Shown one piece after another: positions 3,074-7,595 of a DNA stretch of 64,000 bases (position 1 is its first letter; every line of letters starts with the position of its first letter). The notes under the pieces were generated by a model, which had not been told where the DNA came from, searched no databases, and was given only the letters and a program-made list of their open reading frames with translations. Made by a program: the position numbers and the translations under genes. Where the stretch lies: the NCBI GenBank assembly GCA_964607285.1, contig CAZSJW010000003.1, forward strand, positions 6,094 to 70,093. The letters run 5' to 3'. Source of the DNA: an uncultured Pseudomonadales bacterium (GTDB lineage: Bacteria > Patescibacteriota > Microgenomatia > UBA1400 > PJMF01).

Positions 3074-3826
3074 ATGCATAATCGCAAAGCAACACTATAT
3101 CATTCAGCAGCATTGTTCATTTTAATTCTCATTGCGGGCTTGTCTGTGCACATCCAAAGGGTGAATGCACAGAAAGTTGTCTCCAGCCCCAAACCAACGG
3201 CATCAGCAACTCCTTCGCCACAGGTAGACACAGAAAACGCTCCAGGAGAAGCAGATACCAGCAAAGAAACAATAGAAGAAATCAAACGGCGCATTGAGAA
3301 AAACAGTGATTTAGTCAAAGGGGTCACAGACCAAAAAGATGCATTAATTGGAATAATTGGCGAAGTTACTCGCATAACAGGTGAGTCAGTAACTGTCCGC
3401 TCTCAAACTGCTACAACTATCATCGCACTACCAGAAACCGTCATCATAACGAGCGGAAAAAAGAACATAAAACCAGAAGAAATTGCAGTTGGAAACTGGG
3501 TAGGGATAATAGGTGTCAGAGATGATGACGCGTTTACCCCTAGAAGCATTTCTGTCAGCACACAATCACTCCGTCCAAAGGAACAAGAGGTGTCATTGGG
3601 AACTATTTCAAAAATAAACAGGGCATCAATAGAGTTTGCACCTAGAGGTACTGACAGCACAAAAACGCTGGCAATTGCTAAATCTACTAGCTTTGAAGAT
3701 GTTGATGGCAATACCATCAAGGTTACTGACCTCGATACAGATGTCGCTGTACTGGTTGTAGCTCAGCAAATCGATGAAAATTTAACTCTAGCCACAATAC
3801 GCTCACTTGTTCCACTAGAAGACTAG
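3074..3826 (+). CDS. Secreted hypothetical protein (signal peptide)
   Basis: 250-aa ORF with N-terminal hydrophobic signal-like segment (LYHSAALFILILIAGLSVHIQRVNA); Thr/Ser-rich. Confidence 0.4.
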   Translation: MHNRKATLYHSAALFILILIAGLSVHIQRVNAQKVVSSPKPTASATPSPQVDTENAPGEADTSKETIEEIKRRIEKNSDLVKGVTDQKDALIGIIGEVTRITGESVTVRSQTATTIIALPETVIITSGKKNIKPEEIAVGNWVGIIGVRDDDAFTPRSISVSTQSLRPKEQEVSLGTISKINRASIEFAPRGTDSTKTLAIAKSTSFEDVDGNTIKVTDLDTDVAVLVVAQQIDENLTLATIRSLVPLED

Positions 3827-3849: not shown

Positions 3850-4962
3850 ATGGTTAAAATCGGACTTCCTCACAAACAGCGTGTCAACAAACTCCAATCA
3901 CAACTTGCACGAAAATCAGCAATTTTTCTCTCAAGTCCAAGTTCAATTCGCTACTATACGGGCTTTGTAAGTCTTGTCCCAAGTGAACGTGATGCACTAT
4001 TGTGCATAACGTCCTCTCGCGCATTTTTAATACACTCCACCTTCTCTCCACTTCCCAACGATATATCCTGGATACGCATGCTAACTGGGACGAGCTCCGT
4101 GTCACTACAAAAACATCTGGTGGCAATACTCGCCGAACAACCAATACAAACAATGTTCATAGACACAGAGAATCTTACTGTTAGTGAATTTCAAGTGCTA
4201 CAGTCACAAGGCATTGACACGCAATCACTGATCGGTACTGAGTTGCAAGACTTTGTTACAACACAACGACTACTTAAAGATGCAGCCGAAATCAACAGAA
4301 TGCAGCATGCTGCTCAAATTACTGCTCAGGCAGTTAGTCAAGTTCAATCCCTACTAACTGTGGGGATGACAGAGATCGAGGTGAAAAGGCTTCTTGAGCA
4401 TACTATGGAAAATGCAGGTGCAGAAGGCATGGCATTCCCCTCCATTGTAGCATTTGGGACAAACAGTGCCTTGCCGCATCACCAACCGTCTGCAGCAGTT
4501 CTTTCTGACAACATGGTGGTACTTATCGATGTAGGTGCACAAGTCGATGGCTACTGTGCTGATATGACTCGCACCATATGGTTTGGATCAAGCCCAAGCA
4601 AAAAGTTTATCGAAATCGAAACAGTTGTCATAAATGCATACGTAGCATCTCTGAAAATTGCTAAAAATTTCGTAGAAACTGGTGAGCCCACGCAACTACG
4701 TTCTATCGATCAAGCTGCTCGGTCACTCATCACTGATGCAGGCTATGGTGAACTGTTCACCCATACGACTGGCCACGGGCTGGGACTGGATATACATGAG
4801 CATCCATCCATCAATTGGAAATCCGAGGTCGCTCTACAGTCAAATATGATGTTCACTATTGAACCAGGGATATATATTGACGGTGTTTTTGGAGTGCGAT
4901 ATGAGAATACAATTTTGATAAGCGACAATAGTATCAATGAACTCACCATCCACCAGGATTAA
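3850..4962 (+). CDS. M24 family Xaa-Pro aminopeptidase / metallopeptidase
   Basis: C-terminal pita-bread fold motifs: HTTGHGLGLDIHEHP, DVGAQVDGYCADMTRT, and FTIEPGIY. Confidence 0.75.
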   Translation: MVKIGLPHKQRVNKLQSQLARKSAIFLSSPSSIRYYTGFVSLVPSERDALLCITSSRAFLIHSTFSPLPNDISWIRMLTGTSSVSLQKHLVAILAEQPIQTMFIDTENLTVSEFQVLQSQGIDTQSLIGTELQDFVTTQRLLKDAAEINRMQHAAQITAQAVSQVQSLLTVGMTEIEVKRLLEHTMENAGAEGMAFPSIVAFGTNSALPHHQPSAAVLSDNMVVLIDVGAQVDGYCADMTRTIWFGSSPSKKFIEIETVVINAYVASLKIAKNFVETGEPTQLRSIDQAARSLITDAGYGELFTHTTGHGLGLDIHEHPSINWKSEVALQSNMMFTIEPGIYIDGVFGVRYENTILISDNSINELTIHQD

Positions 4963-4970
4963 TCCATAGA

Positions 4971-5183
4971 ATGTTACCTACAGAACACCCAAAAAATCAA
5001 CTCGATATTTTAAAACAAATCGTAATTGAACCAGAGGACAGCATCCAATTACTTCCAAATCAAATCTTGATTGTAAAACCCAATGGTGTGACACATGTCC
5101 ATCATCTGGATAAGAACGGGGTCATAATACCAGGACAATCAATTGTGATGCCCATTAATAAGTTTTATGGTCGAAATAAATAA
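4971..5183 (+). CDS. Small hypothetical protein (70 aa)
   Basis: ORF immediately downstream of the peptidase gene on the same strand; no recognisable motifs. Confidence 0.2.
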   Translation: MLPTEHPKNQLDILKQIVIEPEDSIQLLPNQILIVKPNGVTHVHHLDKNGVIIPGQSIVMPINKFYGRNK

Positions 5184-5322
5184 TTGCTTGTGAACCCACC
5201 GAGAAACTCCCCTTCGGGGATTAGCCATGCGCTTTGTGAAACTTTGCTCCAAGACAGACAAAATCGCTTGGCGGCAGAACTCAAGAAATCCTATTCAGTC
5301 AATGCAACCATAAAACAAAAAT

Positions 5323-5343
5323 CAGCCTATAGGCTGTTTTTTG
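5323..5343. terminator. Bidirectional intrinsic terminator (CAGCCT..AGGCTG hairpin + T-run)
   Basis: Inverted repeat cagcct/aggctg followed by tttttt on the plus strand and preceded by aaaaa (U-run on the minus strand); lies between convergent plus-strand genes and minus-strand tRNA-Ala. Confidence 0.5.
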
Positions 5344-5349
5344 TTTTAG

Positions 5350-5420
5350 TGGACCCACCGAGAATCGAACTCGGGACTCTGCAATGCGAATGCGGCGGTA
5401 TACCACTTACCTATGGGCCC
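5350..5420 (-). tRNA. tRNA-Ala (anticodon CGC)
   Basis: Manual fold of reverse complement: acceptor GGGCCCA/UGGGUCC with G3:U70 (Ala identity element), D-stem GGUA/UACC, anticodon loop UUCGCAU (CGC), T-stem CCGAG/CUCGG with TTCGATT loop; one C-A mismatch in anticodon stem; CCA not encoded. Confidence 0.8.
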
Positions 5421-5469
5421 TACTTGAGAGAACTTTTGTATTGTACACCTTTTTACATTCGAGTGTGGT

Positions 5470-5498
5470 TTGACAAAAACCTCCTTTATCACTATAAT
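5470..5498 (+). promoter_or_regulatory. Consensus sigma70-type promoter (TTGACA-17 nt-TATAAT)
   Basis: ttgaca at 5470-5475, 17-nt spacer, tataat at 5493-5498; predicted TSS ~5505-5506. Confidence 0.7.
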
Positions 5499-5505
5499 TA
5501 AAACT

Positions 5506-5565
5506 ATGCGATTATTTATGATCAGCAATCTAGCTCATCATACCCACACACATACAATGCGGTGA
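5506..5565 (+). CDS. His/Thr-codon-rich leader peptide (MRLFMISNLAHHTHTHTMR), putative attenuation leader of the hisS operon
   Basis: ATG 8 nt after the -10 element (apparently leaderless); 4 His codons and 3 Thr codons within 7 consecutive codons (5536-5556); stop at 5563-5565; followed by intrinsic terminator; hisS downstream. Confidence 0.55.
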   Translation: MRLFMISNLAHHTHTHTMR

Positions 5566-5582
5566 TGGGATTCTAGTAGCAA

Positions 5583-5627
5583 TTTGAGCACAATAACCCC
5601 GCCGCAAGCGGGTTTTTTTGTGCTCAA
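5583..5627 (+). terminator. Intrinsic terminator / attenuator hairpin
   Basis: Long inverted repeat TTGAGCACAATAACCCCGC-CGCAA-GCGGGTTTTTTTGTGCTCAA; GC-rich CCCGC/GCGGG stem followed by 7 Ts (5613-5619). Confidence 0.7.
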
Positions 5628-5637
5628 AAAAGGTTTT

Positions 5638-6345
5638 ATGAAACAAATACAATATGAAAAAGTTGACACAGCAGGACAGATAACTGCGGTAGTTTCTCGA
5701 GTGAATGCAAATATAAAGAAATCAGCAATAGCGAGAGACATACTGAGCTTAGATGCAACTATCGAACAAGTAGTTTTTGTCATGCCTCAGCTGATAGCTG
5801 ACTACATGCCCAGGCTAGACATGATGGGAGATGAACTCAGCATCAACGGATCTTTAGCAGGTGCTTACGTTGCATTGCAGCGGGCAGATGCGCAAAGCGG
5901 TAGTTTTGAAATCTCTGGGCTGCGAGACCCTGTTCGAGCAGAGATTAGTAATTCTTGTATCAGCATCACTTTTCCTGACACAATAGTTCGTCGCATTGAA
6001 TCTGCAAAAAATACAGTTGTACTTGCAGGTATCTCATACTATGTAGTAGAGGCAACTCTACCCGTGCAGCAGCTAACACCTGCACAGCGAGAAACTATAC
6101 CCAAGCTCCTGGAAGAAAACCCAGCAGCTGGAATCGTTTTCTACCAAGCAAACCAAATTCAACCAGTTGTCTTTGTAGAAGAAACCAATTCGTTAGTTTG
6201 GGAGCAAGCATGTGGATCTGGTTCGCTCGCCTTCTCGCTGCTCACAGGTATATCAACAGTCAAGCAACCATCAGGAAGCTACATTACAATCACCACCTCA
6301 GGTGATACACTAGGCGTGTCCGTGCCAGTACGAAAGGTCGACTAA
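5638..6345 (+). CDS. DapF/PhzF-fold (diaminopimelate-epimerase-like) protein
   Basis: C-terminal motif EQACGSGSLAF resembles the second DapF active-site motif (ACGTGA); first catalytic Cys motif (CGNG) not evident; start chosen at MKQIQYEK after aaaaaagg RBS; stop overlaps hisS start (TAATG). Confidence 0.35.
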   Translation: MKQIQYEKVDTAGQITAVVSRVNANIKKSAIARDILSLDATIEQVVFVMPQLIADYMPRLDMMGDELSINGSLAGAYVALQRADAQSGSFEISGLRDPVRAEISNSCISITFPDTIVRRIESAKNTVVLAGISYYVVEATLPVQQLTPAQRETIPKLLEENPAAGIVFYQANQIQPVVFVEETNSLVWEQACGSGSLAFSLLTGISTVKQPSGSYITITTSGDTLGVSVPVRKVD

Positions 6346-7595
6346 TGCAAACACAAATCCAAACCCTCAAAGGCTTTCGAGACTTCCTACCAGCTGAAAA
6401 ACGCAAGCGACAGTATGTAGCAGGTGTTATGTCTAGCGTGTTTGAACGCTACGGCTTTGCTCCTCTGGAAACACCGACGCTCGAATATGCTGAGCTATTA
6501 TTGGGAAAGTATGGTGAAGAAGCAGATACATTGGTATACACATTTACTGACCGAGGTGACAGAGCAGTGGGTCTGCGCTACGACCAGACAGTACCAACTG
6601 CCCGCGTGTTGACGCAATATCAAAATGAGCTCCCCAAGTATTTTCGCCGATACCAAATCCAAAATGTTTTTCGAGCGGACAAACCGCAAAAAGGTCGCTT
6701 CCGCGAGTTTACCCAGTGCGACTGTGACATCTTCGGGAGTATTTCGCCTGTTGCTGATGCTGAGCTTCTGGCCGTGCTCTATGCAGTTTACAAGGAGATT
6801 GGTTTCGGGCAAATTTCGCTCCTGATAAACGATCGCCAGCTGCTTGCTAACTTGCTCAGTGAGTTTGCCACGCCCGAAGTGCCATTTGCTAGCATTGTGC
6901 AAACAATCGACAAATTGGACAAGGTTGGTGCTGATGGGGTCACTGCTGAGCTTGTCAAAAAAGGTCACGCATACCAAGCTGCTGCAAAAATTTTATCCGT
7001 ACTAGAAAATGCTACTAAATCAAAACAATTGCTTGAAATTGAACAGTACGCAACTGCTTTGGGAGTGCCCCAAGAAGCACTGCTGTTTACCCCTACCCTA
7101 GCACGTGGATTAGACTACTACACAGGCATGATCATAGAAGTGCAGTTACCCGAATATGGTGCGGGCTCAGTGGCAGGTGGCGGAAGGTATGATAATTTGA
7201 TTTCTGAACTCGGTGGACCAGCAATCCCTGCTGTTGGGTTTGGCATTGGCTTTGACAGAACTCTGGAAGCTGCTGATAGTTTGGGGCTTTTACCCACTAC
7301 ACTTGATCGGACTCGGGTGTTAGTTACCTTGTTTGATGAATCATCGACTCCCGCAGTGCTCTCCGTAGCCAAGACTTTGCGTGCTGCTGGCGTGGCAACT
7401 GAGGTCTACCCCGCCATAGAAAAATTAGGCAAACAATTCAAGCTAGCAGATCAGAAGCAAATTCCTTTTGCAGTTGTGGTTGGTCCAGAGGAAGTTGCTG
7501 GCAATACTGTGCAGCTAAAAAACATGGCAACAGGAGAACAACAGCAGATGCAATTGGAGCAGGTTGTCCAGACAGTGCAGATAGCTACCGAATAG
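6345..7595 (+). CDS. hisS: Histidyl-tRNA synthetase
   Basis: 416 aa; class II aaRS motifs (FRDFLP, RYDQTVP, GGGRYDNL), HisS-type C-terminal anticodon-binding domain. Confidence 0.85.
   Translation: MQTQIQTLKGFRDFLPAEKRKRQYVAGVMSSVFERYGFAPLETPTLEYAELLLGKYGEEADTLVYTFTDRGDRAVGLRYDQTVPTARVLTQYQNELPKYFRRYQIQNVFRADKPQKGRFREFTQCDCDIFGSISPVADAELLAVLYAVYKEIGFGQISLLINDRQLLANLLSEFATPEVPFASIVQTIDKLDKVGADGVTAELVKKGHAYQAAAKILSVLENATKSKQLLEIEQYATALGVPQEALLFTPTLARGLDYYTGMIIEVQLPEYGAGSVAGGGRYDNLISELGGPAIPAVGFGIGFDRTLEAADSLGLLPTTLDRTRVLVTLFDESSTPAVLSVAKTLRAAGVATEVYPAIEKLGKQFKLADQKQIPFAVVVGPEEVAGNTVQLKNMATGEQQQMQLEQVVQTVQIATE

Follow-up and report, generated by a model that had tools for sequence, protein, structure and literature searches.

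The 64 kb stretch of contig CAZSJW010000003.1 analysed here, from an ultrasmall bacterium of the Patescibacteria (the window, to the whole of which the both-strand scans and all coordinates without a locus number refer), carries, upstream of a histidine-racemase-like gene and the histidyl-tRNA synthetase gene hisS, a short leader that is very probably a classical ribosome-mediated leader-peptide attenuator, predicted from its sequence to sense charged tRNA-His on an apparently leaderless transcript. An earlier, sequence-only reading of this DNA had described a promoter, an ATG, a 19-codon His/Thr open reading frame (ORF), and a hairpin with a U7 tract at this site, all of which are present, as read from the sequence, at the coordinates it claimed. 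The sequence elements of the leader, their alternative pairings, and the conservation of these are established by the sequence and its comparison with relatives, with the elements laid out as follows:

5470-5475, plus strand: -35 hexamer TTGACA, read from the sequence and recovered by a promoter scan
5493-5498, plus strand: -10 hexamer TATAAT, separated from the -35 hexamer by a 17-nt spacer, read from the sequence and recovered by the promoter scan
5505-5508, plus strand: predicted transcription start site (TSS) at 5505/5506, coinciding with the leader AUG at 5506-5508 and placed by its spacing from the -10 box
5506-5565, plus strand: leader ORF MRLFMISNLAHHTHTHTMR, 19 codons, with stop codon UGA at 5563-5565, read from the sequence
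5536-5541 (CAT CAT), 5545-5547 (CAC), and 5551-5553 (CAT), plus strand: regulatory His codons, read from the sequence
5543-5553, plus strand: segment 1 (CCCACACACAU), the anti-antiterminator, pairing with segment 2 when free of ribosomes in minimum free energy (MFE) structures
5557-5569, plus strand: segment 2 (AUGCGGUGAUGGG), the switch segment, containing the leader stop codon and partnered by segment 1 or segment 3 in constrained folds, with a shuffle control
5597-5606, plus strand: segment 3 (CCCCGCCGCA), the 5' arm and loop of the terminator and the antiterminator partner of segment 2 in constrained folds
5598-5619, plus strand: intrinsic terminator, CCCGC at 5598-5602, loop CGCAA, GCGGG at 5608-5612, and U7 at 5613-5619, from a terminator scan and folding
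5583-5628, plus strand: extended outer stem of the terminator, arms 5583-5596 and 5615-5628, an inverted repeat (93% complementary) also seen in folding

The sigma-70 promoter matches the consensus at 12/12 positions and is the single such match on the two strands of the 64 kb, where 0.06 would be expected, with a whole-window scan of both strands for a promoter, an ORF of 6-40 codons, and a terminator returning the leader locus as the sole site. The -10 box and the ATG are separated by 7 nt (5499-5505), no Shine-Dalgarno (SD)-like 4-mer was found 5' of the leader ATG, and the 5505-5640 fold has a z of -4.45 relative to dinucleotide shuffles. Two adjacent His residues (HH) occupy codons 11-12 of the leader ORF, with further His at codons 14 and 16, and Thr codons at 5542-44, 5548-50, and 5554-56. 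Of this His/Thr run, emphasised as a whole by the sequence-only reading, the His codons are conserved in frame in relatives, and the Thr codons are probably structural, forming part of segment 1, and not regulatory. Threonine as a second signal was rejected: Thr is common after HH in the leaders but lies within segment 1, and the stretches of the loci that were inspected showed no thr gene. The terminator ends 19 nt ahead of the ATG of the first gene at 5638; the possibility that it serves a convergent gene was rejected, with no minus-strand feature running into it.

Folding bears out the proposal that this leader can adopt mutually exclusive terminator and antiterminator structures, with segment 2 pairing either with 5543-5553 or with 5597-5606. 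With a ribosome masking the His codons, the antiterminator of the window leader has an energy of -15.4 kcal/mol and sequesters 6/6 bases of the terminator arm, U5558-G5564 pairing with C5600-A5606 and G5567-G5569 with C5597-C5599, and is matched by only 1% of shuffled sequences. The pairing of AUGCGG with CCGCAA suggested by the sequence-only reading forms the core of this longer antiterminator, with its second coordinate one base off.

The same arrangement recurs in relatives. Scans of genome and metagenome contigs with an alignment of the racemase family gave 143 loci (numbered with the prefix L), 113 distinct loci of which were classified by leader type, and a simple scan was made for units comprising an ATG ORF of 8-40 codons with HH and a stem and T-run within the next 90 nt. 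About 19 of the 113 loci classified, belonging to several lineages of Patescibacteria, have a His leader upstream of racemase-like homologues, in keeping with the conservation of a His-rich micro-ORF anticipated from the window alone. The proteins downstream of these leaders are divergent (28-45% identical), and the units of HH ORF and terminator are almost confined to the strand of the racemase-like gene, just upstream of it. Two of the His leaders lie beyond the reach of the simple scan, one having a GTG start (L014) and the other being fused to an upstream ORF (L040). Leader peptides from five of the loci illustrate the range:

L001: leader peptide MLRNSIVNYYCSHHHSHLLGVSRRA
L052: leader peptide MFRMLSNRLFHHTYPTCGGEVVL
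L026: leader peptide MKLQLVSISAHHHTPIGGGEDCSC
L037: leader peptide MSIISAQRRHHHHHAL
L039 (Saccharibacteria): leader peptide MIYVSTHHTHLSPEVSG

These leaders are 14 to 28 codons long and contain 2 to 5 consecutive His codons, with wobble changes. Histidine is a rare amino acid, and HH is the most frequent doubled residue in the micro-ORF and terminator units of 114 unique upstream regions, occurring in 14/37 loci, with GG next at 8. When CAYCAY hexamers located 25-140 nt before a terminator were considered (n = 20), 14 encoded His-His within a short ATG ORF, compared with 2 and 0 in the other two frames. Alignment of 14 leaders with MAFFT leaves as the only invariant internal columns the CA.CA. 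of the two His codons, with T or C at the third positions, which, on this comparison of sequences, is a codon-level signature.

Across all leaders, MAFFT alignment is reliable at the His codons and the terminator only, and the pairings were therefore assessed with per-sequence constrained folds, shuffles, and duplexes between cognate and non-cognate segments. Seventeen leaders (16 distinct) were folded in four ways, namely unconstrained, with the second His codon masked by a ribosome, with the stop codon masked in the same way, and cut short ahead of the terminator, and the 1:2, 2:3, and 3:4 pairing logic is present in 17/17. The region of the His codons pairs with a G-rich segment 2 in every leader folded. 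In all leaders the stalled-ribosome folds show segment 2 taking up the 5' arm of the terminator, with energies of -13 to -30 kcal/mol and nearly all arm bases sequestered, and in every leader a ribosome placed at the stop codon leaves the terminator alone. When, leader by leader, the bases lying between the masked ribosome site and the terminator were permuted, the antiterminator was better than the shuffles in 16/16 leaders, with equally good shuffles making up 0-4% (a fraction of 0-0.04). The comparison of cognate and non-cognate duplexes, used as an alignment-free test of covariation, gives a mean of -12.8 kcal/mol for cognate duplexes of segment 2 with the terminator arm versus -9.5 kcal/mol for non-cognate ones (permutation p<5e-5), and cognate duplexes of segment 1 with segment 2 are likewise better than non-cognate ones (p=6e-4). 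The UGA of the window leader (5563-5565) lies inside segment 2, with the stop codons of other leaders lying in, just before, or within ~12-27 nt after it.

The 5' ends of the leader transcripts apparently coincide with the start codon or lie at most a few nucleotides from it, i.e. the transcripts appear to be leaderless, a reading that draws on the conservation of the spacing between the -10 box and the start codon across divergent lineages. The leaderless start without an SD sequence suggested for the window leader thus finds parallels in its relatives: in 14 leaders (those of the window, L001, L002/L052, L003, L014, L026, L037, L039, L060, L072, L073, L083, and L129, with L072 counted with its in-frame upstream ATG) 6-11 nt separate the end of the -10 box from the start codon, and an SD-like 4-mer is present in none of these. 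The promoters of these 14 leaders score 8-12 of 12 consensus positions, with ten scoring at least 10. An SD-like 4-mer is absent from the 20 nt upstream of the start in 17/18 leaders; the baseline for the window, in which 16/52 ORFs have such a 4-mer at the first ATG, is too crude for use. A second candidate leaderless transcript in the window is that of a 415-aa ORF on the minus strand (15825-14578), the first ATG of which lies 9 nt after a 10/12 promoter (TTCACA-17-TACAAT).

From these features we infer the TSS, leaderless initiation, ribosome stalling, and regulated read-through, which would combine as follows. The RNA would start at ~5505/5506, its first bases being the AUG of the 19-codon ORF, and the ribosome would load at the 5' end without an SD sequence. 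With His-tRNA plentiful, a ribosome at the UGA (5563-5565) would cover segment 2, so that the terminator (5598-5612 and U7) would form and transcription would end 19 nt ahead of the first gene. With His-tRNA scarce, a ribosome stalled on the tandem His codons (5536-5541) would melt segment 1 (5543-5553), and the segment 2 thus freed would pair with 5597-5606, sequestering the 5' arm of the terminator. Read-through would then extend into the histidine-racemase-like gene and hisS, and possibly into the EamA and kinase-like genes beyond. Were translation wholly absent, segments 1 and 2 would pair, and the terminator would form again.

The genes predicted to be under the control of the leader are the following:

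5630-5640, plus strand: AAGG ribosome-binding site (5630-5633) and ATG of the first gene (5638-5640), read from the sequence, with no room or match for a separate promoter
5638-6345, plus strand: histidine-racemase-like gene (CntK/HisR family), 235 aa, the first regulated gene, from a family profile compared with Protein Data Bank (PDB) chains
6345-7595, plus strand: hisS, histidyl-tRNA synthetase, from Pfam (PF13393 at 5e-42, and PF03129)

A promoter scan of 4800-6000 found no other plus-strand promoter downstream of 5470 and up to 6000. With no promoter between the terminator and the first gene, transcription of the operon depends on read-through of the terminator. The first-gene TAA stop codon (6343-6345) overlaps the hisS ATG (6345-6347) by one base in a TAATG junction; TTG at 5584 was rejected as the start of the first gene, being an artefact of the ORF finder, in favour of the ATG at 5638.

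A search of a local Pfam copy gave no match for the 235-aa protein, and its homologues, from Patescibacteria (Woesebacteria/Microgenomates and others), carry the precomputed Pfam family PF26317. A profile of 35 family members matches the F. nucleatum histidine racemase 9cr1 with E=3.6e-26, and the chains 6l4l, 6jis, and 6jiw, deposited as diaminopimelate epimerase, at about 2e-20. We take 6l4l, 6jis, and 6jiw to be CntK of S. aureus. CntK of S. aureus is a histidine racemase (PMC11602996). On the basis of these profile matches, the first gene, described as DapF-like in the sequence-only reading, is a homologue of histidine racemases (CntK/HisR); the same reading had correctly named hisS, here confirmed with Pfam, and the overlap of stop and start codons. 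The protein has Ser68 (GDELSING) where 6l4l has a Cys (GNEFCGN), presumably the first catalytic cysteine, with the otherwise near-identical 6jiw and 6jis having Ser. In the alignment of the 35 family members the position of S68 is occupied by Ser in 24, Cys in 10, and Asn in 1, and the second Cys (C192, ACGSGS) is invariant. The racemase-like enzyme may therefore, judging from these residues, not be a standard two-cysteine racemase.

Comparison of gene orders indicates that, where the racemase-like gene and hisS are apart, the leader element goes with the former. hisS follows the racemase-like gene in 44/113 distinct loci, and the leader stays with the racemase-like gene where hisS lies upstream (L037, L060) or is not adjacent (L021, L024). 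This amends the sequence-only reading, which described the element as a candidate attenuator of hisS. The regulated genes are tied to His, comprising hisS, the histidine-racemase homologue, and a hisG-like gene in L073. In L073 (463-3163) the His leader precedes the hisG-like gene (PF01634, E=2e-11), a HAD hydrolase, the racemase-like gene, and hisS, and in L023 the genes after the leader encode a nucleoside hydrolase and a HAD-racemase-like fusion of 398 aa.

In two further loci (L012 1-351 and L021 2302-2604) the His codons and terminator lie in the C-terminal tail of an ORF with a Trp_repressor domain (PF01371, Pfam), and a similar repressor-ORF tail, judged by eye, is located ~290 nt upstream of the racemase-like gene of L040. 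The sensing codons of these loci would thus form the last part of a full-length protein gene instead of belonging to a micro-ORF of their own. The PF01371 family includes the histidine repressor YerC/HisR (PMC9413887); a YerC-like repressor gene was not found within the window.

Thirteen other relatives have a T-box-like leader upstream of the racemase-like gene, at the position that the His leader occupies in the window (L006, L010, L015, L016, L017, L031, L093, L094, L096, L109, L112, L125, and L127; e.g. L031 2750-2937). All 13 contain the motif GGAUGGGACCGCG and a long terminator, and a hairpin with the 7-nt loop GUCACGA, which contains the His codon CAC, is present in at least 11 of the 13, its stem apparently covarying as judged by eye from the sequences. 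The T-box model of Rfam matches four of them end to end, below its gathering score of 93 (38.8-22.4 bits, E=3e-5 to 0.5). These leaders have a very short stem I, and an additional hairpin and U-run within the loop of the antiterminator. The presence of T-box-like His leaders in relatives thus places the same operon under a tRNA-His sensor in sister lineages, and a swap in sensing between T-box and leader peptide has been documented for hisS by Naville & Gautheret (PMC2965389). A Levyibacteria contig among these loci (L010, 2464-2605, minus strand) also has a near-threshold match to the S-adenosylmethionine (SAM) riboswitch (41.5 bits compared with a gathering score of 44.4, E=3.7e-6), another candidate cis-regulatory RNA in Patescibacteria.

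The T-box-like leaders, located at the same position and with CAC in a loop, raise the question of whether the window leader could itself be an RNA-only sensor, i.e. a minimal T-box-like or other leader binding tRNA-His or His, with CAUCAU or CAC as the specifier, the micro-ORF incidental, and uncharged tRNA stabilising the antiterminator. Such a sensor would suit the strong structure of the window leader (z = -4.45), and pairing of the UGGG in its segment 2 with the 3' end of tRNA-His is conceivable; the UGG is, however, not conserved in segment 2 among the leaders when compared by eye, the GGNUGGNACCRCG motif was not seen by eye in 5470-5640, and 5150-5700 gave no T-box match even at E<=10. 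The start codon at the predicted TSS moreover sets the frame of the His triplets in 14 leaders (frame bias 14:2:0), the consecutive His codons vary in number from 2 to 5 with wobble changes, and the placement of the stop codon in or near segment 2 would be meaningless to an RNA-only sensor, which we therefore regard as unlikely. It is very unlikely that the arrangement is fortuitous or unregulated, a strong promoter and a leaky terminator either maintaining a constitutive low level of the operon or ending a small independent RNA, and the His ORF being a CA-rich by-product. Against chance stand the recurrence, in about 19 divergent loci, of in-frame HH together with a terminator and segments whose complementarity is lineage-specific, the specific association of the unit with genes related to His, and its single occurrence in the window, even though the His/Thr codons do come from a CA-rich run (CATCATACCCACACACATACA), just two His codons are adjacent, and some read-through must be constitutive given that hisS is essential.

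The least probable of the explanations considered assigns the function to the products of the leader, either a His-rich small peptide (e.g. metal-binding) or the ~115-nt terminated transcript as a trans-acting small RNA (sRNA), with attenuation secondary or absent. The transcript is stable and structured in folding, and attenuator-derived sRNAs and trans-acting leader peptides are reported in work on Sinorhizobium trpL (PMC6614838, PMC7298713). Beyond the His run, the peptides of the present leaders nonetheless have in common only residues imposed by the RNA stems, they range from 14 to 28 codons in length, and a trans role would be compatible with a cis attenuator and would not replace its function.

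Several observations weigh against attenuation by a leader peptide in the window, or against its extension to a family. The simple duplex of segment 2 with the terminator arm is no better than non-cognate duplexes in the window, and its antiterminator advantage appears only with the terminator loop bases included; the short-arm duplex is unremarkable because part of the antiterminator uses these loop bases. The 5' AUG can be paired in the full-length MFE structure, and of the four His codons in the leader only two are adjacent, the others being interspersed. The scans for ORFs and terminators used heuristics written for this analysis. Among full-length relatives of the first-gene protein, the nearest is only 44% identical, with the one close relative (L011, 90% identity over the last 52 residues) on a contig cut inside the gene, and 22 syntenic relatives have neither a His leader nor a T-box.

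With regard to known systems, an Rfam scan of the window at gathering score returned tRNA-Ala only, with no T-box, and a scan of 5150-5700 at E<=10 gave no His_leader or T-box and only chance-level matches, those to leader families being Trp_leader, at 14.5 bits (E=4.5) compared with a gathering score of 41, and rimP, at 17.5 bits (E=3.2) compared with 47. On these scores the window leader belongs to no curated Rfam leader, riboswitch, or sRNA family. It resembles hisL of E. coli and Salmonella (RF00514) in its short ORF with tandem His codons, its 1:2, 2:3, and 3:4 hairpins, its intrinsic terminator, and the predicted sensing of His-tRNA via stalling. In contrast to hisL, it has 2+2 His codons versus 7, lacks an SD sequence with its start codon at the predicted TSS, precedes a racemase-like gene and hisS in a Patescibacteria host instead of His biosynthesis genes, and has no sequence or structure match to RF00514. 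The pheST leader (pheM) of gamma-proteobacteria is an example of leader-peptide attenuation of an aminoacyl-tRNA synthetase gene by cognate codons; the window leader differs in using His, and the SD-led pheM peptide is unrelated in sequence. A T-box (RF00230) of hisS would share the same target and the antitermination by uncharged tRNA-His, whereas the window leader lacks T-box sequence and is predicted to sense via the translating ribosome, not by direct tRNA binding.

The sequence-only reading considered a His-codon attenuator of hisS on a leaderless transcript unusual, which it is less so than claimed, with precedents in three reports (PMC2965389, PMC4007540, and bioRxiv 10.1101/834739). 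In bacilli a His leader peptide has been predicted upstream of a hisS paralogue and hisZ (Naville & Gautheret 2010, PMC2965389), and these leaders share with that of the window a His-codon micro-ORF and a premature terminator before a gene of the HisRS family; they differ in belonging to another phylum, so that similarity in sequence would not be expected, and in lacking a racemase-like gene. A differential RNA sequencing (dRNA-seq) study of Deinococcus deserti reports 14 cases in which aminoacyl-tRNA synthetase or amino-acid genes are preceded by leaderless leader peptides, with TSSs at or 1 nt from the AUG of short ORFs enriched in the cognate amino acid, e.g. ahead of cysS (PMC4007540). The TSSs of D. 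deserti are mapped, whereas that of the window is placed by promoter spacing, and the phyla differ. Leaderless poly-Cys short ORFs of mycobacteria are reported to act as Cys-responsive attenuators of downstream operon genes (bioRxiv 10.1101/834739), and the window leader differs from these in using His and in its clear intrinsic terminator with U7. The proposed mechanism is classical, with each of its unusual features having precedent in Bacillus, Deinococcus, or Mycobacterium.

The region upstream of the leader promoter contains further features of its own, beginning with a divergent tRNA gene:

5349-5420, minus strand: tRNA-Ala(CGC), divergent from the leader, from Rfam

A 16-nt direct repeat (5190-5205 and 5349-5364, 15/16 identical, 159 nt apart) duplicates the 3' end of this tRNA gene and, from its sequence, resembles an att-type scar left by an element that integrated at the tRNA-Ala gene or was lost from it. 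A perfect-looking bidirectional terminator (5311-5348), with 19-nt arms that are 95% complementary, lies between a 70-aa ORF (4971-5183) and the minus-strand tRNA-Ala. The plus-strand ORFs at 3074-3826 (250 aa) and 4971-5183 (70 aa) have no Pfam match.

Gene regulation in Patescibacteria is described as virtually unknown in a 2024 perspective (PMC11665869), and a literature search turned up no account of attenuators or T-boxes in these bacteria. The leader provides a concrete, conserved, and experimentally tractable putative regulatory switch in Patescibacteria (Candidate Phyla Radiation), suggests that leaderless initiation is used there for regulatory micro-ORFs, and links the uncharacterised histidine-racemase-like family to the cellular response when His-tRNA is in short supply. 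The leader is also a clear example of T-box and leader peptide having been swapped in evolution before the same operon, and, with homologous leaders in L039 and L040, may offer a native His-responsive expression switch for the few genetically tractable Saccharibacteria.

A broader reading of these sequences, which we put forward tentatively as possible but short of probable, is that the window leader belongs to a Patescibacteria-wide family of leaderless His attenuators that follows the racemase-like gene, not hisS, and is evolutionarily interchangeable with an unusually short-stemmed His T-box. If so, these reduced-genome epibionts would monitor the charging of His-tRNA, and would respond by inducing a CntK/HisR-like enzyme, often without one of the two catalytic cysteines. 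Some lineages would have fused the sensing codons to the 3' end of a repressor gene of the TrpR/YerC family, placing an attenuator at the tail of a protein gene. The racemase-like enzyme itself would then be an unrecognised part of histidine acquisition or salvage, acting for example on host-derived D-His or a His derivative.

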